Positions 3,104 through 35,263 of a DNA stretch of 35,263 nt are shown piece by piece. The position numbers and the translations under genes were made by a program. This DNA is from a virus (Duplodnaviria > Caudoviricetes): IMG/VR virus record IMGVR_UViG_3300027373_000012, positions 1 through 35,263 of that record. The stretch is one strand, 5' to 3'. The notes beneath the pieces were generated by a model. It worked only from the letters and a program-made list of their open reading frames with translations, was not told where the DNA came from and did no database searches. Each line of letters opens with the position of its first letter. The stretch's first letter is position 1.

Positions 3104-4745
3104 AGGTAAGCAGGAGGATGACAGTATCTTCCTGTTTCACGAACCCTGCGACTGTGGTTCATCCGATGGGAGGGCAGTATACAGCAACGGTAACAAATAC
3201 TGCTTTGTGTGTAAGAACTGGTTTGGCGGGGAGGGTGAACCACCCAAGCAACACTCACGTAGTAAACGTGTTACCAACCTGATCAGTACCGGTGAGTTCA
3301 AATTCCTGAAAGCACGTGGCATAGCTGAGGCTACCTGCCGCAAGTATAACTATCAGGTAGGAACCCATGAGGGTAAGTCCGTTCACATTGCCAACTATTA
3401 CCGTAAAGGTGAAGTGGTAGCTCAACATCTGAGGTTCAGTACCAAGGATGTAGGGATGCCGTGGCTTGGTGAAGGTAAGAACGTAGAGCTGTTCGGTCAA
3501 CAACTGTGGCGCAACTCTGGTGGTAAACGGATCGTGATAACTGAGGGTGAGATTGACACACTCTCAGTGGCTCAGGCGTTCAACCTTAAGTGGCCGGTGG
3601 TGGGTGTACCTGGAGCTGAGTGGGCGATCAAGAACCTGCCGAAGCACCTTGAGTTCCTTGAGTCATTTGAAGAGGTGGTGTTGGCCTTTGATAATGATGA
3701 GCCAGGGCGGGATGCTGCCAAGGCATGTGCTACCTACTTCAGCCCTAACAAGGTGCGGATTGTACAGTGGCCAACAGGTATCAAAGATGCAAATGATATG
3801 GTTCAAGCTGGACGCATTGGTGAGATCTCAGACCTCATCTGGAACTCTAAGGTATTCAGACCTGATGGGTTGGTATCCATAGCTGACATTGCTGATGAAG
3901 CCATGAGACCTACCCAGATGGGCCTACAGTGGGTTTTCCCTGAGCTGACCAAGTTGACCTATGGGAGACGCTTCGGTGAGATCTACGGCTTTGGTGCTGG
4001 GACCGGCATTGGTAAGACTGACCTCCTGACACAGCAGATGGCTTTTGATCTGGACGTACTCAAGCAGCGGGTTGGGGTGTTGTTCCTAGAGCAGCGTCCC
4101 ACAGAGACTGCCAAGAGGATAGCCGGTAAGATTGACGGCAAGATGTATCATGTACCTGATGAGGATTGGAAGGCTGAGGAACTTGCGGCTACCATTCGGG
4201 GGCTTGAGGATCGGGTTGTGCTGTATGACAACTTTGGTCAAACCGATTGGGACATCGTTAAGACTCAGATCAGGTACATGGTGCAAGGCTATGACATTAA
4301 GTTGATCTACCTGGATCACCTGACTGCTATGGCTGACCCATCCTCAGAGAAGGAATCAATAGAGCTGATCATGAAGGAAATGGCTGCTCTTGCTAACGAG
4401 CTTGGTTGCATCATCCACTTCGTATCCCACCTGTCTACACCCGATGGTAAACCTCATGAAGAGGGTGGTAGGGTCATGATCAGGCACTTCAAGGGGAGCC
4501 GCAGTATCGGCTTCTGGTCCTTCTTCATGTTCGGCTTGGAGCGAAACCAACAGGCCGATGACCCAGAAGAACGGCAGTCTACCACCTTCAGGGTTCTTAA
4601 GGATCGCTACACAGGCCGCAGTGCTGGCAAGACCATTGACCTTGGCTATGATTCCGAGACGGGAAGGCTCTACGTTAAGGGTAACCCAGCACCATTCACT
4701 AACGAAACATCATCAACAACATCAAAACGGAAGGAGGACTTCTAG
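3090..4745 (+). CDS. DNA primase/helicase (T7 gp4-like); alternative start ATG 3096
   Basis: N-terminal Zn ribbon HEPCDCGSSDG...YCFVC, TOPRIM ITEGEID and AFDNDEPG, Walker A AGTGIGKT, IYLDHL, VSHL, GKPHEEGGRV, VLKDRYTG. Confidence 0.97.
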   Translation: MTMPRGKQEDDSIFLFHEPCDCGSSDGRAVYSNGNKYCFVCKNWFGGEGEPPKQHSRSKRVTNLISTGEFKFLKARGIAEATCRKYNYQVGTHEGKSVHIANYYRKGEVVAQHLRFSTKDVGMPWLGEGKNVELFGQQLWRNSGGKRIVITEGEIDTLSVAQAFNLKWPVVGVPGAEWAIKNLPKHLEFLESFEEVVLAFDNDEPGRDAAKACATYFSPNKVRIVQWPTGIKDANDMVQAGRIGEISDLIWNSKVFRPDGLVSIADIADEAMRPTQMGLQWVFPELTKLTYGRRFGEIYGFGAGTGIGKTDLLTQQMAFDLDVLKQRVGVLFLEQRPTETAKRIAGKIDGKMYHVPDEDWKAEELAATIRGLEDRVVLYDNFGQTDWDIVKTQIRYMVQGYDIKLIYLDHLTAMADPSSEKESIELIMKEMAALANELGCIIHFVSHLSTPDGKPHEEGGRVMIRHFKGSRSIGFWSFFMFGLERNQQADDPEERQSTTFRVLKDRYTGRSAGKTIDLGYDSETGRLYVKGNPAPFTNETSSTTSKRKEDF

Positions 4746-6930: not shown

Positions 6931-7125
6931 ATGCTTTCCACTGGTATCTCAAAAATGGCAGCTGCCCTTGCCATGCTTAAATTCAAGTACCTACTCCCAA
7001 GGATGGTTAACGCACAGCCTGTGGTTAAGACCGCAAGGGACCGCTCCGTAAACCCCCGCTACCCAAAACGGTTTCAGGGTGTTCAGGAGTGTCAACGTAG
7101 GTTGCAACAGAAAGGGGTGCTGTAG
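6931..7125 (+). CDS. Small basic hypothetical protein (64 aa)
   Basis: Best start ATG 6931 with AAGGAG RBS and an AC-rich leader. Confidence 0.7.
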   Translation: MLSTGISKMAAALAMLKFKYLLPRMVNAQPVVKTARDRSVNPRYPKRFQGVQECQRRLQQKGVL

Positions 7126-7799
7126 TGATTATTGGTCTTCATGGTAAGGCTGGCTCAGGTAAGTCAACATTTGCTGAAGCTGCTGTACAGAACCTGGGGG
7201 CAGTTCGGCTGTCATTTGCCACGGCACTTAAGAAGGAAGTTGAGGAGGTACTGCAAGATGTAGGGGTTCCTCACCTGCCTGAACAGCTCTATGGTGATGC
7301 TGTTGCTAAAGAAGTACCACTGGTGTTTGTTCCACGGGATATGAGTAAGCTACAGGATAGTGGGGCCATTGGTTTCGGACTGCTCAGAACTATCCTTGTA
7401 CACAGGGGTATGTACTCTGGTGGGGTCTGCACGATAACTCCACGGGTTCTCCTCCAGGAGTGGGGGAACCTTAAGCGTAAACTTGAGGGGCCTGACTACT
7501 GGATCAATAAGCTACTCCTCCAATGCACTGACCACTCTCAGCTCTACATCATTGATGACGTGCGTTACCTGAATGAGGCCCATCTTGTAAAGGAGCGTCT
7601 GGGTGGTTACCTCATCAAGATCGTGCGCCCCAACACTGCAGCCATATCTGGTGCTGATCATGTTTCAGAGACTGAGCTGGATACATTCGAGGATTGGGAT
7701 GTAGAAACCCTTAACTGTGCCGCTGAGGATGTCTTTAAAATGCAGGCATCACTCATTGTTCTGAGCCTTCAGAATCACTTCAGGGATAACCTGCTGTGA
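7125..7799 (+). CDS. Deoxynucleoside monophosphate kinase
   Basis: IIGLHGKAGSGKST P-loop, SFATALK, TPRVLLQEWG, IIDDVRYLNE, HVSETELD. Confidence 0.9.
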   Translation: MIIGLHGKAGSGKSTFAEAAVQNLGAVRLSFATALKKEVEEVLQDVGVPHLPEQLYGDAVAKEVPLVFVPRDMSKLQDSGAIGFGLLRTILVHRGMYSGGVCTITPRVLLQEWGNLKRKLEGPDYWINKLLLQCTDHSQLYIIDDVRYLNEAHLVKERLGGYLIKIVRPNTAAISGADHVSETELDTFEDWDVETLNCAAEDVFKMQASLIVLSLQNHFRDNLL

Positions 7800-9575: not shown

Positions 9576-9739
9576 ATAACGGAACGCTAGTGTATACAAC
9601 GGTGTTCTAACAATATGGTTGACAACTGTGGTCAATAACTCCTAGTGTGATAACGTACCACTACTGGAGGTCAGCACCTGTCTGCACTACCGACAACGTT
9701 AGGTAGGCACAAAGTCAGGAATAATGCGGCCTCCAGTAC

Positions 9740-9779
9740 CTTTTTACCGAATACATGCCCACTTTAGGAGAAAGAAGAA
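9740..9779 (+). promoter_or_regulatory. Putative phage RNA polymerase promoter (start of the late region)
   Basis: CTTTTTACCGAATACATGCCCACTTTAGGAGAAAGAAGAA, 39/40 identical to 30756-30795; the CACTTTAGGAGA core parallels T7 CACTATAGGGAGA; intergenic, just before the virion genes. Confidence 0.8.
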
Positions 9780-9829
9780 TTGAATGAAAAAATGTACTAA
9801 AGTTAAACCTTAAGGGAGAACTTAAAGTT

Positions 9830-10294: not shown

Positions 10295-11890
10295 GTGGCT
10301 GAAACCATAGCTGCTATCTCAATGGGTGTAGAAAGTTCTAACTCTGAGGGTTCCCTTAAGTCCAGGTTTAACTCCCTGGATGCCAAGCGGACTCAGGTAT
10401 TGGAACGTGGACGGCAGTGTTCAGGACTAACTATACCAGCTCTACTTCCCCCAGCAGGTTTCTCTGAAGATCAGGAGTTAATTACTCCCTATCAAGGGAC
10501 CGGAGCCTGGGCGGTAAACAATCTGGCATCAAAGATCGTACTGGCACACCTTGCACCAAACACTCCATTCTTTAAAGAAACACTTGATGTCAAAGCTGCT
10601 CAGGAACTTAAGGATGAAACCGAAGTCCTTGATCAGATCAACTCTACCTTTGCGGTAATCGAACGGGCAACGCTTCAGGAGATTGAGGAGCAAGCCTTAA
10701 GGGTTCCCTACCTGCTCACCATTAAGTATCTCATTGTGTGTGGCTATGCACTGCTCTACCTACCTGATGAGGGGGGTGCTATATCGTATCGTCCTGACCA
10801 GTTCGTAGTGGTTCGTGACCCTATGGGTGATGTACTTGAGCTGATCATCAGGGAGCGTATTCACGTATCACTGTTACCACCTGAAGTTCAAGCCACAGCT
10901 GTAACCAAAGCTGCACGTGATGATCAAACTGTTGAAATGTACACCCAGGTCAAACGTAAGAAGCGTTTGTGGTACGTGGTTCAGGAGGTCTGTGAAGAAC
11001 TCATAGAGTCCTCCCGTGGGACATACCCCTTGGATGAGTGCCCTTGGATTGCACCACGCTGGTCTACAGTGGCTGGTGAGCATTACGGTAGGGGTCATGT
11101 GGATGAGTACATTGGTGATATCAGATCTGCTGAATCACTCACCCAATCCATTGTGGAGGGAACTGCAGCAGCAGCTAAGGTTCTCTTCCTGAATAACCCC
11201 AATGGGACCACTAACTCAAAGAAGGTATCCCAAGCCAAGAATGGTGACATAATCAGCGGCAATGCTACTGACATAACCACCCTTCAGGTTCAGAAGTACA
11301 ATGACTTCAAGGTGGCCCTTGATACCCTTGAGCGTTTGACACGGGCTATTGAGCAGGCATTCCTTCTTATGGCTTCTGTCCAACGTAACGCTGAACGTGT
11401 CACTGCTGAAGAGTTCAGGTCAATGGCAAGTGAACTTGACTCAGCCCTTGGCGGAGTATATTCCCTCCTCTCAGCTACCCTACAGTTACCACTACTGCGG
11501 CGTATTCAAGCGCGTATGCGTAAGCAGGGTAAACTACCACAACTCCCTTCCAAGTTTGTCAAGCCGGTTATCACTACCGGTATTGATGCCCTCTCAAGAT
11601 CATTCGAGCTGTCACGTATCGAACAGTTTCTCGCCGGTCTACCACCAGAAGCCCTTAAGCGTATCAAGTGGGAAGTCTACCTGAAGCGTAGGGCCACAGC
11701 CTTGAACGTAGATGTTGAAGGTATGGTCATGACTGATGCTGAATACTCGCAGATGCAACAGCAGGAAACACTTATGAGTATCGCCCAGGGTGCTGCACCA
11801 GGGGCGATACAAGAACTCACCAAAGGAGCTATGAACAGTGGCACAGGAGCAAACCCAGAAGCAGCCCAAGGCACCGAAGCAGGAGCCTGA
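10295..11890 (+). CDS. Portal / head-tail connector (T7 gp8-like)
   Basis: LTIPAL, PYQGTGAWAVNNLASK, GEHYGRGHVDEYIGD, QRNAERVTAEE, LGGVYSLLS. Confidence 0.96.
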   Translation: MAETIAAISMGVESSNSEGSLKSRFNSLDAKRTQVLERGRQCSGLTIPALLPPAGFSEDQELITPYQGTGAWAVNNLASKIVLAHLAPNTPFFKETLDVKAAQELKDETEVLDQINSTFAVIERATLQEIEEQALRVPYLLTIKYLIVCGYALLYLPDEGGAISYRPDQFVVVRDPMGDVLELIIRERIHVSLLPPEVQATAVTKAARDDQTVEMYTQVKRKKRLWYVVQEVCEELIESSRGTYPLDECPWIAPRWSTVAGEHYGRGHVDEYIGDIRSAESLTQSIVEGTAAAAKVLFLNNPNGTTNSKKVSQAKNGDIISGNATDITTLQVQKYNDFKVALDTLERLTRAIEQAFLLMASVQRNAERVTAEEFRSMASELDSALGGVYSLLSATLQLPLLRRIQARMRKQGKLPQLPSKFVKPVITTGIDALSRSFELSRIEQFLAGLPPEALKRIKWEVYLKRRATALNVDVEGMVMTDAEYSQMQQQETLMSIAQGAAPGAIQELTKGAMNSGTGANPEAAQGTEAGA

Positions 11891-12008
11891 GAAGACCGAA
11901 CAACCGAAGCAGGAGCCTGAGAAGACCGAACAACCGAAGCAGGAGCCTGAGAAGACCGTAATGGAAAACCATTACGAATCCCGCGGCTTCACGATCACTA
12001 CCCGATAA
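11838..12008 (+). CDS. Small 56-aa protein with a 10-aa tandem repeat, overlapping the portal 3' end
   Basis: AAAGGAG RBS then GTG 11838: MAQEQTQKQPKAPKQEPEKTEQPKQEPEKTEQPKQEPEKTVMENHYESRGFTITTR*. Confidence 0.65.
   Translation: MAQEQTQKQPKAPKQEPEKTEQPKQEPEKTEQPKQEPEKTVMENHYESRGFTITTR
11873..11958 (+). repeat. 30-bp tandem repeat ACCGAAGCAGGAGCCTGAGAAGACCGAACA, about 2.9 copies
   Basis: Directly visible; contiguous copies with no spacers. Confidence 0.93.
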
Positions 12009-28166: not shown

Positions 28167-28424
28167 ATGGCTGTTGATCGTTTTAAACGTAAGGTAGCTC
28201 TTGAGGATAAGCTGTTTGTTCTGATGGAGAAGACCGTTGAGCTACTGACTACACGTGTGGAAAGTGGTGAGTGTTCGGCTGCTGACCTTCAGGTTGTAAC
28301 CGGATTGCTGAAACACAACAAGGTTGACCTGGAGTTTGCCGGTAACAAAGGTAATGACCCTGACTTGCCCGCTGAGGATGAACTGCCGTTCACTGAAGGG
28401 CCTCTGGTGTCATGCGAACCATAG
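28167..28424 (+). CDS. Terminase small subunit (T7 gp18-like)
   Basis: LL.RVESGECSAADLQVVTGLLKHNKV and C-terminal ELPF; upstream of the large subunit; RBS AAGGAG. Confidence 0.8.
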   Translation: MAVDRFKRKVALEDKLFVLMEKTVELLTTRVESGECSAADLQVVTGLLKHNKVDLEFAGNKGNDPDLPAEDELPFTEGPLVSCEP

Positions 28425-28951
28425 TTGTCAACCTGTTCGCTGGTCCTGGAGCGGGCAAGTCCACACTGGCGGCTGGTGTCTTCCATAGGTTGAAACTTGA
28501 GGGTATCAACTGTGAGCTAGTTACCGAGTATGCCAAGGACTTAACCTGGGAGGGACGTACTGATTTACTTCAGCGAAATCAGGTTCTGGTATTGGGGGAA
28601 CAGTATGAACGGCTTTCACGGCTGGTTGGTAAGGTGGATGTAATTGTAACTGACTCACCACTACTCATGTCCAAGGTATACAGCTTACAGTTAAACGCAC
28701 TGGATGCCCTAGTGGATGAGCTGTGGGGTCAGTTTGATAACATCAACTTCGTTGTCACACGTACCAAGCCTTATAACCCTGTAGGTAGGAACCAGAGTTT
28801 ACCTGAAGCTCTCCTGTTGGATGGTCATATCACAGACATGCTGGATGCTTGTGGTGCTGCCTATGAGTCTGTGTGCTGCGATCAGGTGGATATAGTTGCA
28901 CGTGATGCTAAGTTACGCATGATGGCAAACAGTAAAGGCTTCACAGGATGA
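28412..28951 (+). CDS. P-loop NTPase / kinase (NadR/Ttd14 AAA-like)
   Basis: VNLFAGPGAGKST, ELVTEYAKDLTW, VDVIVTDSPLL, YNPVGRNQ. Confidence 0.8.
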   Translation: MRTIVVNLFAGPGAGKSTLAAGVFHRLKLEGINCELVTEYAKDLTWEGRTDLLQRNQVLVLGEQYERLSRLVGKVDVIVTDSPLLMSKVYSLQLNALDALVDELWGQFDNINFVVTRTKPYNPVGRNQSLPEALLLDGHITDMLDACGAAYESVCCDQVDIVARDAKLRMMANSKGFTG

Positions 28952-29048: not shown

Positions 29049-30740
29049 TTGAATACAGCTAATACCCCTAAGAAGACCAGGGAGCAACTACTAGCAGCAG
29101 ACTTTAAGAACTTTCTGTTTGCAGTGTGGCGTTTCCTTGGCCTTCCTCCCCCAACACCCATTCAGTACGAAATAGCGGATTGGCTGCAGTCTGGGCCACG
29201 CCGTAAGATGGTTCAGGCTTTCCGAGGGGAAGGGAAGTCTTGGATTACCTCAGCCTATGTCCTGTGGGTACTCAGGTACAAGAACAGGAACTTCAAGTTT
29301 GAAATTGTGTCAGCTTCTAAGGCGCGTGCTGATGACTTCACCACGTTCACCAAGCGGCTGATAGCTGAAATGCCTGAGCTTAAGTGTCTCAAGCCTAAGA
29401 ATGATCAGCGTGACTCTATGGTTGCCTTTGATGTGGCCGGTTGTACAGCTGCTCACGCCCCTTCAGTTAAGTCTGTGGGTATCTTCGGTCAGCTTACAGG
29501 GTCCCGTGCAGATGAACTGATTGCTGATGACATTGAGGTAGCACAGAACTCGGCCACGCAAGATGCCCGTGAGAAGCTGGAGAAGGCTACCAATGAGTTT
29601 GAGGCTATCATTGTACCTGGGGGTAAGATTACCTACCTAGGCACGCCTCAATCAGAAGAGTCTGTCTATAACAAGCTCCCACCTAAAGGGTATCACATAC
29701 GTATCTGGCCAGCCAGGGTTCCTAAAGAGTCCCAAGCAGCTAAGTATAATGGTGAGTTGGCACCCTCTGTGCGGGCTTTGATGGAGCAACTGAAGAGCGG
29801 CATACCCACAGACCCTACACGGTTCACTGATATTGACCTGATGGAACGGGAAATGTCTTACGGGAAGGCTGGGTGGTTACTTCAGTTCATGCTGGATACC
29901 TCACTGGCCGATGCTGAAAGATACCCCCTCAAGACTGCTGACCTGATTGTAATGAATCTGCTACCAGACAAGGCTCCAATATCCGTTTCATACGGTGCAT
30001 CCCCTGAGTTGCAGATTAAGGACTTGGCTAATGTTGGTTTCTCAGGTGACAGATATTACAGGCCAATGTTTGTGGACAAGGAGTGGGCACCTTATGAGGG
30101 TTCGGTCATGTTCATTGACCCTTCAGGACGCGGTAAGGATGAGACCGGATACGCTGTTGTGAAGCAGCTACACGGTAAACTCTATGCTACAGCTGTGGGT
30201 GGTATGAAGGGTGGATATGATGATGATACCTTGGTGGCTCTGGCTAGGATCGCTAAGGAACAGCTGGTAAACCTGATCATCATTGAACCTAACTTTGGTG
30301 ATGGTATGTTCCTGAAGCTGTTTACCACAGTACTCAGGACCATTTATCCATGTACCTGTGAGGATGCCAAACGTGCAATGGCCCAAAAAGAGAAGCGTAT
30401 CATTGATACCTTGGAACCGTTGCTCAATAAACATAAGCTGGTAGTGTGCCGTACAGTCATTGAAGCTGATCTGAAGACTATTGAGGATGACCCTAAGTAT
30501 TCCCTGATGTATCAACTGACTCATATCACCAAGGATCGGGGGGCACTCAAGCATGATGACCGCTTAGATGCTCTTGCAGGGGCTGTGGCCTACTGGCTGG
30601 ATAGCATGTCCAAGGATGAAGAGGAGTCTAAGGATACCTTCAAGGAGGCACAGTTGGATGCTGCTCTGGGTCAATTCATGGAACACTGTGTAAATGGCCT
30701 TTTTGGAAGTAGTAAAAACGGTCTTAACTGGTTAAGATAA
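29049..30740 (+). CDS. Terminase large subunit (T7 gp19-like)
   Basis: QAFRGEGKSWIT, GQLTGSRAD.LIADDIEV, YLGTPQ, IDPSGRGKDETGY, EPNFGDGMF, HDDRLDALAGAV. Confidence 0.97.
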   Translation: MNTANTPKKTREQLLAADFKNFLFAVWRFLGLPPPTPIQYEIADWLQSGPRRKMVQAFRGEGKSWITSAYVLWVLRYKNRNFKFEIVSASKARADDFTTFTKRLIAEMPELKCLKPKNDQRDSMVAFDVAGCTAAHAPSVKSVGIFGQLTGSRADELIADDIEVAQNSATQDAREKLEKATNEFEAIIVPGGKITYLGTPQSEESVYNKLPPKGYHIRIWPARVPKESQAAKYNGELAPSVRALMEQLKSGIPTDPTRFTDIDLMEREMSYGKAGWLLQFMLDTSLADAERYPLKTADLIVMNLLPDKAPISVSYGASPELQIKDLANVGFSGDRYYRPMFVDKEWAPYEGSVMFIDPSGRGKDETGYAVVKQLHGKLYATAVGGMKGGYDDDTLVALARIAKEQLVNLIIIEPNFGDGMFLKLFTTVLRTIYPCTCEDAKRAMAQKEKRIIDTLEPLLNKHKLVVCRTVIEADLKTIEDDPKYSLMYQLTHITKDRGALKHDDRLDALAGAVAYWLDSMSKDEEESKDTFKEAQLDAALGQFMEHCVNGLFGSSKNGLNWLR

Positions 30741-30755
30741 CTGAGGAAAGTACCA

Positions 30756-30795
30756 CTTTTTACCGAATACCTGCCCACTTTAGGAGAAAGAAGAA
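30756..30795 (+). promoter_or_regulatory. Putative phage RNA polymerase promoter at the right end (phiOR-like position)
   Basis: 39/40 identical to 9740-9779; immediately after the terminase large subunit. Confidence 0.8.
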
Positions 30796-30815
30796 GGTTG
30801 GTATAGAGAGTATAT

Positions 30816-30872
30816 AACTAAAGGGTAACCTAAAGTTTAACTTAAGGGTGAACTTAAAGGGTAACTTAAGTG
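30816..30872 (+). repeat. Short degenerate repeats AAC(C/T)TAA(A)G, about five copies at 11-12 bp period
   Basis: aactaaagggt aacctaaagttt aacttaagggtg aacttaaagggt aacttaagtg; similar to the CCTAAAG short repeats near T7 genome ends. Confidence 0.7.
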
Positions 30873-30928
30873 TTGCCCTTCATCACCCTCCTCACTGATC
30901 AATACCACCCCAAGGGAGATACGTTAGA

Positions 30929-31382: not shown

Positions 31383-31649
31383 GAGGGGTTCCTTAAGGGG
31401 CTTGTAATCAACACAACTGTGACTCTTTGACCAGAATACCACAAAAATGTGAAGAGGTATACGCTAGTGTCCCTGTTCGGTTTTACCCCCGTGGGGGGTC
31501 TCTTGAGGGTATGCCCTATGTGTTCAGCTCCTGGGGTACAATACACACATGACCTCTTCACGTTTGAGCGGGAGACATGCACTAAAGTAGACACATGCAG
31601 CTGTAACACACTGTAATAAAAACAATTACGCCGGATTGATAGTCTGGTG

Positions 31650-31835
31650 TGAGGGTATCTTGTGGTTTAACCTAGGGGTGCTTCCTATATATTGTATAGG
31701 GGGTGCCCCTATTTTTACTATATGTGGTATATGTAGTATGTGTGACCACTATATATTGTGTATGTTAAATATCATCTGTGCGTTTTGACACAACATATGG
31801 TATACCCTTTAGTTCCACCATACTACATCTTGTGG
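31650..31835. promoter_or_regulatory. Array of NrdR-box-like palindromes (five full, one half)
   Basis: 16-mers starting 31682 TTCCTATATATTGTAT, 31715 TTACTATATGTGGTAT, 31746 CCACTATATATTGTGT, 31788 ACACAACATATGGTAT, 31820 ATACTACATCTTGTGG, and half site 31650 (..ATCTTGTGG); compare consensus acaCwAtATaTwGtgt. Confidence 0.72.
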
Positions 31836-32007: not shown

Positions 32008-32073
32008 TTCCCACATGGTAATTATTTTATTGACAAGCTGTACTAAAATCAATTATCGTTCCCACATGGTAAC
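32008..32073. promoter_or_regulatory. Two copies of a pseudo-palindromic operator TTCCCACATGGTAA flanking the early promoter
   Basis: Exact copies at 32008-32021 and 32059-32072; a third at 33585-33598. Confidence 0.75.
32030..32059 (+). promoter_or_regulatory. Host sigma70-type early promoter
   Basis: TTGACA at 32030-32035, TATCGT at 32054-32059 (18-bp spacer), AT-rich upstream sequence; precedes the early genes. Confidence 0.65.
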
Positions 32074-33583: not shown

Positions 33584-33599
33584 GTTCCCACATGGTAAC
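33584..33599. promoter_or_regulatory. Third operator copy GTTCCCACATGGTAAC
   Basis: Exact 16-bp match to 32058-32073; intergenic. Confidence 0.72.
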
Positions 33600-33629: not shown

Positions 33630-34244
33630 ATGGAAACATACGAAGAAAGAATCTTAAGGCAACGTGAAGAGAAACTAGCAAAGGAACGTGCAAACCTCCA
33701 AACCGTCCAGGCTATAGCAGTGTTGATGGGCGGCTCTGTAGCGGCTCCACAGTGGGAACCTGATCACTGGACTATAGGGTACAACAACCAATTTACGGTT
33801 ATCCTTGAGGACCAAAAAGGTCTGAGCTTAGGCTTTGACACTTATGGCAGAAAGGACCGTGTTTGTATTTCAGGTGTTTATCCTAAAGGGACACACGGGC
33901 TAGCCTCTGCAATAACGGTTTCCACATCAAAAACACCTGAGCAGATAACCAAGGATATAACACGCCGGTTCATGCCTGAGTACGAAAGAACCCTAGTGGT
34001 AGCACTACAGGAGCAAGCTGAGCGGGATGACTACAAAAGCAGGACTGAGGGGTACAAAGATCAGCTCTGTAGTGTCCCAGGCGTCACCCGTAATACCTAC
34101 AATGAGGAGCTATCCGTTCGCTTGAGTGGTGGAAATTATGGTGCAATCAAGTGGGTAACAGGTGATGGCACCGCAAAACTTGAACTGTCAAGCCTGCCGG
34201 TCAGTAAGCTCCTTAAGGTTCTGGGGGTGCTGGGCAATGGCTAA
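33630..34244 (+). CDS. Early hypothetical protein (204 aa)
   Basis: AAGGAG RBS; long ORF. Confidence 0.8.
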   Translation: METYEERILRQREEKLAKERANLQTVQAIAVLMGGSVAAPQWEPDHWTIGYNNQFTVILEDQKGLSLGFDTYGRKDRVCISGVYPKGTHGLASAITVSTSKTPEQITKDITRRFMPEYERTLVVALQEQAERDDYKSRTEGYKDQLCSVPGVTRNTYNEELSVRLSGGNYGAIKWVTGDGTAKLELSSLPVSKLLKVLGVLGNG

Positions 34245-34592: not shown

Positions 34593-34988
34593 ATGATGCA
34601 CCCTTTAGGTAAACCACGATTGGGCGGACTAACTGTGAGCGAGTTACGGACCATACTCAAAGTTTTGCATTGTATGCGTGAGGTTGATAACACAATGCCA
34701 GTGAGACATCTGGAGGCACTGCTTTACGTGTATGACAAAACTGACCAATTTAATGGTGTATCATTAAGTCAGATCAGTCAGGCCATAGACCTGAGTTCAG
34801 CTGCCACTTCACGTATTATAGATAAGCTGTCTAATGGTTGGTTAAATCCAGCTACATCCAGAATAGTGGGAGGTCACAAACTCTTAACAAAGTCCATATC
34901 ACATACAGATGAGCGAACCCTTGAGATTAAACTTACAGACAAGGGGCGGGAGCTGATGGGTAAAATTGAAACACTGCTGGCGGGGTGA
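34593..34988 (+). CDS. MarR-family winged-helix transcriptional regulator
   Basis: LEALLYV, GVSLSQISQAIDLSSAATSRIIDKL (HTH), DERTLEIKLTDKGRELM (MarR wing, DxR...LTxKG); RBS AAGGAGG. Confidence 0.85.
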   Translation: MMHPLGKPRLGGLTVSELRTILKVLHCMREVDNTMPVRHLEALLYVYDKTDQFNGVSLSQISQAIDLSSAATSRIIDKLSNGWLNPATSRIVGGHKLLTKSISHTDERTLEIKLTDKGRELMGKIETLLAG

Positions 34989-34991
34989 CCT

Positions 34992-35263
34992 ATGGCTAAA
35001 CATAGAGTTACCACTACAGGCGTGGCTAATCTGTACCGTAGGGGCACCTCCAGAGTCTTGTACATGAAGTTTTATTTCATGGGTAGGCTAGTGCATAGGT
35101 CCACTGGTACAGATGACCCTGAGTTGGCACAATTAGCGATACAGCAGGCCCAACGTGAGATCTACAAGGAGGTGATGACCGCTGATACCCCAAAAGTATC
35201 ACAGATAACACTCTCCAAGGCTGTCCAGGAGGTGTATACCGAACGGTGGCAGACCAATACAGC
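34992..35263 (+). CDS. Probable tyrosine integrase, N-terminal part (3'-truncated)
   Basis: MAKHRVTTTGVANLYRRGTSRVLYMKFYFMGRLVHRSTGTDDPELAQLAIQQ...ITLSKAVQEVYTERW resembles arm-binding N-termini (LYxRG...RxSTGTxD...A) of phage integrases; open to the window edge; catalytic residues not visible. Confidence 0.65.
   Translation, partial: MAKHRVTTTGVANLYRRGTSRVLYMKFYFMGRLVHRSTGTDDPELAQLAIQQAQREIYKEVMTADTPKVSQITLSKAVQEVYTERWQTNT

Follow-up and report, generated by a model that had tools for sequence, protein, structure and literature searches.

The window analysed here, i.e. the whole stretch of 35,263 nucleotides, is a phage record of 86% completeness, from which the RNA polymerase region is missing. 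Annotation with PHROG gives a T7-like genome (gp2.5, endonuclease, primase-helicase, polymerase, dNMP kinase, portal, capsid, tail tubes, TerS and TerL); behind these come early genes, then a MarR-like regulator and the beginning of an integrase. The T7-like single-subunit RNA polymerase, absent from this incomplete record, is present in a complete relative (G001). By the same annotation, the gene for the terminase small subunit (TerS) lies at 28167-28424 and that for the terminase large subunit (TerL), of the T7 gp19 type, at 29049-30740 on the plus strand. The temperate module occupies 34593-35263, also on the plus strand, with the MarR-like regulator at 34593-34988 and a tyrosine integrase starting at 34992. 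Besides the dNMP kinase gene (7125-7799), a second nucleotide kinase gene, thymidylate-kinase-like, is found between TerS and TerL (28412-28951). Two tandem repeats were seen elsewhere: 15-bp units coding for LSGAD at 1-250, which form the end of a pentapeptide-repeat gene, and a 30-bp unit present three times at 11875-11960, spanning the stop of the portal gene.

A metagenome contig (L211) with an identical TerL runs through the full integrase into a tRNA-Leu and a trigger-factor gene. On this contig (11944-13689), the same phage is integrated at the tRNA-Leu, and the host trigger-factor gene follows directly. The best named matches of the trigger-factor protein are from Geobacter sp. (84%) and Trichlorobacter (78%), and the best named match of the window TerL (81%) is likewise from Geobacter. 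Judged from these genes, the window is a temperate T7-like prophage, and its host is Geobacterales-like, since both the trigger-factor and the TerL matches point to Geobacter. NrdR is listed in 9 of 9 Desulfuromonadales and in 0 of 10 Desulfovibrionales genomes in the supplement of PMC5343134; from this order-level survey, the host may possess NrdR.

Several elements follow TerL. A phage RNA polymerase promoter, similar to T7 phiOR, is predicted at 30765-30787 (plus strand), and a nearly identical copy precedes the head genes (9749-9771). The two belong to a near-identical duplicate of about 40 bp (9737-9780 and 30755-30796), likely a phage RNA polymerase promoter, of which just two copies were found. 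Next come short CTTAAGGG-like repeats with a 12-bp period (30822-30874, plus strand), presumably similar to the T7 right-end short repeats, and then a conserved genome-end motif, AAAAATGTGA ... CCCCCGTGGGG (31443-31495, plus strand), which spans the left genome end in phages LUZ100 and ProddE. From these two phages, the left end of the genome is predicted at about 31468-31472. The order of parts (predicted promoter, then 12-bp-period repeats) is that of a T7-type junction. A direct terminal repeat of about 300 bp is predicted, from cultured phages, at 31470-31773; it contains a terminator-like element, an inverted repeat with a T run behind it, at 31673-31711 (plus strand). From the annotated ends of cultured phages, the motif ATCTGT at 31774-31779 (plus strand) is predicted to be the pause motif of the concatemer junction and to mark the right-hand limit of the repeat.

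Further right, an early promoter of sigma-70 type (32008-32072, plus strand; TTGACA at 32030, TATCGT) is flanked by two identical 14-bp operators, TTCCCACATGGTAA. This quasi-palindrome has three identical copies in all (32008-32021, 32059-32072 and 33585-33598), the third of which precedes the gene at 33630. A phage repressor, for example the MarR-like protein, likely uses them as operators; the first 40 kb of the relative G001 contain no match to them.

The NrdR-type box array

A first-pass annotation of this DNA had pointed out six aligned 16-mers, starting at 31650, 31682, 31715, 31746, 31788 and 31820, as sites similar to those of the repressor NrdR; their positions and their offsets (32, 33, 31, 42 and 32 bp) were confirmed, as was the presence of the dNMP kinase gene and of the early promoter it reported. 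We scored the sites with a palindromic NrdR matrix trained on 67 upstream regions of bacterial ribonucleotide reductase (RNR) genes, phage sites being excluded. Training yielded 47 sites in 31 of the 67 regions, spanning 11 to 22 bits; these regions are from Pseudomonadota and Actinomycetota. One locus of an unpublished genome (L316) was left out of the analysis. The top motif of the first de novo run was rejected: it was a one-base-shifted register, and the in-register motif scored higher when refined.

Among the 35,248 positions of the window, the five full sites rank 1 to 5. Box 3 (31746-31761, 21.1 bits) comes first, followed by box 4 (31788-31803, 18.8 bits), box 5 (31820-31835, 17.2 bits), box 2 (31715-31730, 12.1 bits) and box 1 (31682-31697, 11.2 bits), a weak box; the inverted repeat of 31673-31711 holds it in its loop. 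All these scores are inside the 11-22 bit range of the training sites. The five sites had been said to share a core, and they are indeed the sole positions of the whole window with 6/6 core letters and at most five mismatches to the quoted consensus. Five to six boxes had been proposed; five stand, and the element at 31650-31665 is in phase with the array but matches by its right half only (-4.6 bits, rank 756), and is therefore counted as a half site. Scoring against shuffled DNA, run with the RNR-promoter matrix, gave at most 2 sites of 10.5 bits or more for the array and at most 3 for the intergenic stretch in 5000 dinucleotide shuffles, compared to the 5 observed.

The whole-turn phasing of the array also held. 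The spacers between the five boxes are 17, 15, 26 and 16 bp, and all four fall inside the optima of 14-17 and 24-27 bp described for four NrdR proteins, which kink DNA by about 90 degrees at each box (PMC12051234). At the bacterial RNR promoters of the training set, 13 of 16 neighbour distances are 31-33 or 42 bp. Judging by motif and spacing, five of the six sites are genuine NrdR-type boxes.

We compared the array with bacterial NrdR operators (E. coli nrdAB, nrdHIEF and nrdDG; L. monocytogenes nrdAB, with two pairs; S. pneumoniae, with long spacers). It resembles them by its 16-bp palindrome, its 15-17 and 26-bp spacers and scores in the range of real sites; unlike them, it controls no RNR gene, counts five phased boxes and lies at a predicted terminal-repeat boundary rather than at a promoter. 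As the first-pass annotation had stated, no RNR gene is nearby: no RNR large subunit, NrdD or ATP-cone was found in the 86%-complete record, and PF02867 and PF13597 had no match in the complete relative G001, so that the array lies outside any nrd operon promoter. The description of NrdR-type boxes far from nrd genes and near the left genome end is thus supported. BLASTN of the region against cultured phages gave no match. A structured RNA was considered and discarded, the fold z-score of -2.9 being explained by the palindromic boxes and the 31673-31711 hairpin, and the single Rfam match (mir-302) being below threshold and due to chance.

Position of the array relative to the predicted packaging cut

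In T7 and T3, the concatemer junction consists of a phage promoter, short repeats, the terminal repeat and a class II pause, ATCTGTT, recruiting gp18/gp19. ATCTGTT is described as the class II signal at the T7 junction (bioRxiv 2021.01.11.426313), where the paused polymerase recruits terminase (PMC3276506). The window has the same order of parts after TerL, and ATCTGT at the predicted repeat end; it differs by its motif, ATCTGTG, which keeps 6 of the 7 letters of the class II consensus, and by the boxes on both flanks, whereas T7, T3 and K1F have no boxes, and T7 strengthens the pause by its lysozyme, gp3.5.

Is ATCTGT a reasonable landmark for the end of the repeat? Of ten cultured records whose terminal repeat is annotated (an assumed length being used for the T7 repeat), eight have ATCTGT within 2 bp of the repeat end; the exceptions, LUZ100 and ProddE, are both temperate and have no ATCTGT at the repeat end. 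The record of BA14 itself annotates this end as the concatemeric junction. In eight cultured enterobacterial T7-like phages with a pair of boxes, the second box starts 28-29 bp before ATCTGT, and the terminal repeats annotated in four of these eight carriers all end at ATCTGT. In the window, box 3 starts 28 bp before the ATCTGT at 31774, a geometry reached by 666 of 200,000 shuffles; the 12-bp linker between box 3 and the motif is unrelated to that of the enterobacterial carriers. As this ATCTGT sits in the sole 26-bp spacer of the array, boxes 1 to 3 would be inside the predicted repeat, and boxes 4 and 5 just past the cut. The array is therefore predicted to straddle the concatemer junction, i.e. 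the packaging cut.

An unannotated NrdR-type pair lies in the terminal repeat of BA14, Ro45lw, Ro103C3lw, EV136_1, Oda, KP32 isolate 192 and Mysterion. The window phage shares with these carriers a pair 32-33 bp apart and the 28-29 bp distance to ATCTGT; they are lytic and enterobacterial and have two boxes, whereas the window phage is temperate, has a Geobacterales host and carries five boxes, two of them right of the cut. K1F (L571) and Vec13 (L584) hold degenerate GACTAT words in the last 40 bp of the terminal repeat, where sister Kayfunaviruses carry full boxes, a natural loss or a precursor state.

We then searched IMG/VR for a pair plus ATCTGT at the window distance, and found 99 stretches, compared to 17 when the motif was moved by 5 bp. 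T7-like markers were present in 60 of the 80 examined among the 99, and in 0 of the 17 controls. These 60 matches are kin, and the geometry amounts to one independent match, the window phage, plus a partial one, the relative L002, which has ATCTAT at 28 bp and ATCTGT at 38 bp. Where the search pattern leaves box positions free, they fit the matrix in 13 of 15 T7-like clusters, with conservation about equal in spacers and in free box positions (52% vs 56%). ATCTGT is unevenly distributed between the strands of the window (2 vs 19; a rank of 27 among 3962 hexamers, where a Markov model expects 5) and of G001 (6 vs 12), a weak avoidance that does not go beyond codon effects.

NrdR pairs in relatives and in other phages

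A look for phased arrays at the left ends of related phages had been advised. Such arrays were found in part: L002 (TerL 80% identical) keeps a 32-bp pair aligned with boxes 2 and 3 of the window within diverged surrounding DNA, but only 4 of the 39 distinct regions downstream of a related TerL have a pair (this phage, L083, which is the same as L002, L069 and L061). Upstream coding controls of those TerL regions had none. Position varies: L085 carries a single strong box, about 190 bp past the end motif; in L077 the pair is located at the TerL stop, and in L061 on the TerL side of the end motif. The pair of L061 (9917-9980) is followed by two matches to the DnaA box, and in L069 one such match (12016) overlies the early promoter, which would place two sensors of the replication state next to each other at one phage end.

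A pair was found in 9 of 28 cultured phage ends, i.e. 27 records plus L328, identical to Cronobacter phage GW1 at 100% of 291 bp; as 6 of the 9 carriers were picked by a BLAST match to a box-bearing end, this ratio is no frequency. The other 19 ends have no pair, and some of these negative records may not contain the true genome end. T7, T3, K1F, Vec13 and most marine relatives are without the pair.

Across IMG/VR, motif and spacing together indicate that phased NrdR pairs are common in phages: strict pairs at 32 bp are found in about 550 IMG/VR stretches, compared to 2 at 37 bp. A side count gave about 280 stretches at 30-bp spacing. An RNR large subunit gene lies within 4 kb of 2 of 68 distinct pair loci, the same as for random positions. 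The link of these pairs to terminase and portal genes is borderline. Adjacency concerned 14 of 68 pair loci vs 7-8 of 68 random ones, which is not significant (p 0.08-0.12), and a test by protein for packaging genes gave 18 of 127 vs 9 of 127 (p 0.05), with a control that favours long genes. Proximity to contig ends gave no significant difference either (11 of 68 pair loci vs 8 of 68, p 0.31). Individual cases were seen in phages that are not T7-like: strict pairs lie in the TerL-portal gap of L341, L361, L364, L378 and L379, before TerS in L351, L359 and L386, and before an HNH gene in L335 and L338. An unrelated viral contig, L380, has fourteen NrdR-like boxes within 600 bp (about 3700-4300).

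A possible checkpoint on packaging, and its alternatives

Five boxes flank the predicted packaging cut, and NrdR is a transcriptional repressor that binds DNA when loaded with dATP together with ATP or ADP (PMC12176259). Our main reading, to which we give roughly one chance in two, is that host NrdR loaded with dATP gates the start of packaging according to the dNTP supply. The phage RNA polymerase would start at 30765-30787, cross the terminal repeat (about 31470-31773) and pause at the ATCTGT at 31774, where terminase would make the first cut. NrdR tetramers would sit on boxes 2 and 3 and on boxes 4 and 5, on either side of the cut, or alternatively on boxes 3 and 4, bridging it across the allowed 26-bp spacer and kinking the DNA. 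NrdR would act on polymerase pausing and on the first terminase cut, because the geometry relative to that spot is fixed; and being on DNA only at high dATP, it would make packaging sensitive to the dNTP supply. Its role would be that of a modulator and not an essential one, since T7, T3 and K1F do without boxes. Several observations weigh against this reading: the geometry counts a single independent match, the annotated repeats of LUZ100 and ProddE end without ATCTGT, the pairs of LUZ100, L061 and L077 are placed elsewhere, the motif of the window is imperfect, and few regions behind a related TerL carry a pair.

The sign of this effect is uncertain. As a brake, NrdR would block terminase at high dATP, so that genomes stay in the replicating pool, until replication drains the dNTPs, NrdR leaves and packaging begins. 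With the same anatomy, it could instead be a helper, which strengthens the pause or bends the site, the cut being licensed once dNTPs suffice for rebuilding the repeat. We lean slightly towards the brake, because boxes 2 and 3 are in the path of the polymerase, 12 bp from the cut, because boxes 3 and 4 can be bridged across it, and because a delay is sensible while precursors last. The helper is nearly as good, because box 4 begins about where the paused polymerase would stand, because the motif is imperfect, and because rebuilding the terminal repeat consumes dNTPs.

A precedent of a kind exists in the integration host factor IHF, which acts at the lambda cos site. There too, a host DNA-bending protein is placed at a phage packaging site; unlike the constitutive, architectural IHF, NrdR binds depending on dATP and ATP, and would thus add a metabolic switch.

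An improbable alternative, though it agrees with the known function of NrdR as a transcriptional repressor, is that it regulates transcription here, at the rightward early promoter, at a leftward promoter or by prophage read-through, tying the start of lytic or lysogenic development to dNTPs. The first-pass annotation had suggested such a coupling of early transcription or of the lysis-lysogeny decision to dNTP pools. In LUZ100, the pair lies 52 bp right of the repeat end, outside the repeat, and ends 24 bp before the -35 of the mapped host promoter P1 (NrdR goes unmentioned in the main text of the LUZ100 paper, PMC10134795); L069 has its last box about 75 bp away from a promoter; and L328, a GW1-like Kayfunavirus, carries a second 32-bp pair (4000-4047) between the gp0.7 kinase gene, which it directly follows, and the polymerase region. 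In the window, however, 195 bp separate the last box from the -35 of the early promoter, which has its own 14-bp operators, and in relatives the corresponding distance can be as short as 24 bp or reach several hundred. For a leftward promoter, two weak matches place their -10 in boxes 2 and 3, and L002 has one in a like position, but such matches are at chance level (5 found vs 5.2 expected) and arise because the box contains TATAGT. Moreover, lytic phages too carry the pair, inside the repeat. Of that suggestion, the sensing of dNTPs survives, with the packaging junction as its likely target, and control of the early promoter or of lysogeny appears doubtful.

The decoy proposed in the same annotation, in which the array would titrate NrdR during genome amplification and derepress the host ribonucleotide reductase, is less probable still. 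It fits with the lack of an nrd gene in the phage record and in G001, with five boxes where a pair is usual, and with the rarity of RNR genes near strict phage pairs (2/68). ProddE, whose host order is without NrdR, has nrdDG and no pair, which fits any NrdR-dependent role equally. A sponge needs no fixed site, yet the pair keeps its 28-29 bp to the junction motif, and a prophage supplies a single copy. T7-type shut-off of host transcription occurs before replication, so that derepression would come too late, and the lytic carriers encode a gp0.7 kinase annotated as inhibiting host transcription. T7, T3 and K1F are not known to carry nrd genes, and do without boxes as well. Infection by pneumococcal phage can induce the NrdR regulon, the cause not being shown in what is reported (PMC6755750); in the opposite direction, an nrdR insertion is mentioned among phage-resistant mutants of E. 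coli BL21, with the phage not stated there (review PMC13670838).

We also consider it quite unlikely that the phage borrows NrdR for its injected linear DNA, to cap or organise the ends as protection from end-attacking nucleases or as help in entry, instead of timing packaging. Boxes inside the repeat would occur at both ends of virion DNA, and the kink of about 90 degrees per box could serve such a purpose; but left-end boxes are at 120-350 bp from the tip, a varying distance, whereas that to the inner repeat boundary is fixed, and boxes 4 and 5, as well as the LUZ100 pair, fall outside the repeat. Least probable of all is binding by a phage protein, for example the small terminase, to sites with a mere resemblance to NrdR boxes: the sites lie where binding by terminase would be expected, in the packaging region, and K1F and Vec13, which have no full box there, hold related GACTAT words instead, but the same 16-bp motif with 31-33 or 42-bp spacing occurs in phages with TerL less than 50% alike and differing short repeats, and the strict phasing in unrelated phages points to a conserved host protein as the binder.

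The NrdR box itself was known; the 28-29 bp rule, the predicted repeat boundary inside the array and the Geobacterales case are worked out here. Among the openly accessible papers listed on NrdR together with phage, prophage, terminal repeat or packaging, none was found to describe phage-borne NrdR boxes at genome ends. More broadly, and tentatively, many T7-like phages, both lytic and temperate, of Proteobacteria and Desulfobacterota may use NrdR as a checkpoint on the packaging cut, dATP-loaded NrdR shutting the junction until precursors are low, and the pairs near terminase and portal genes elsewhere may act alike.

How phages switch from copying their DNA to packaging it is poorly understood. 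A nucleotide sensor placed on the packaging cut, if true, would be a direct answer, and the first job of NrdR other than at a promoter. The boxes are present in cultured E. coli phages such as BA14 and Ro45lw, and missing in their close kin T7, K1F and Vec13. Even a different role of the boxes would explain an unannotated feature in the terminal repeat of many well-studied phages.
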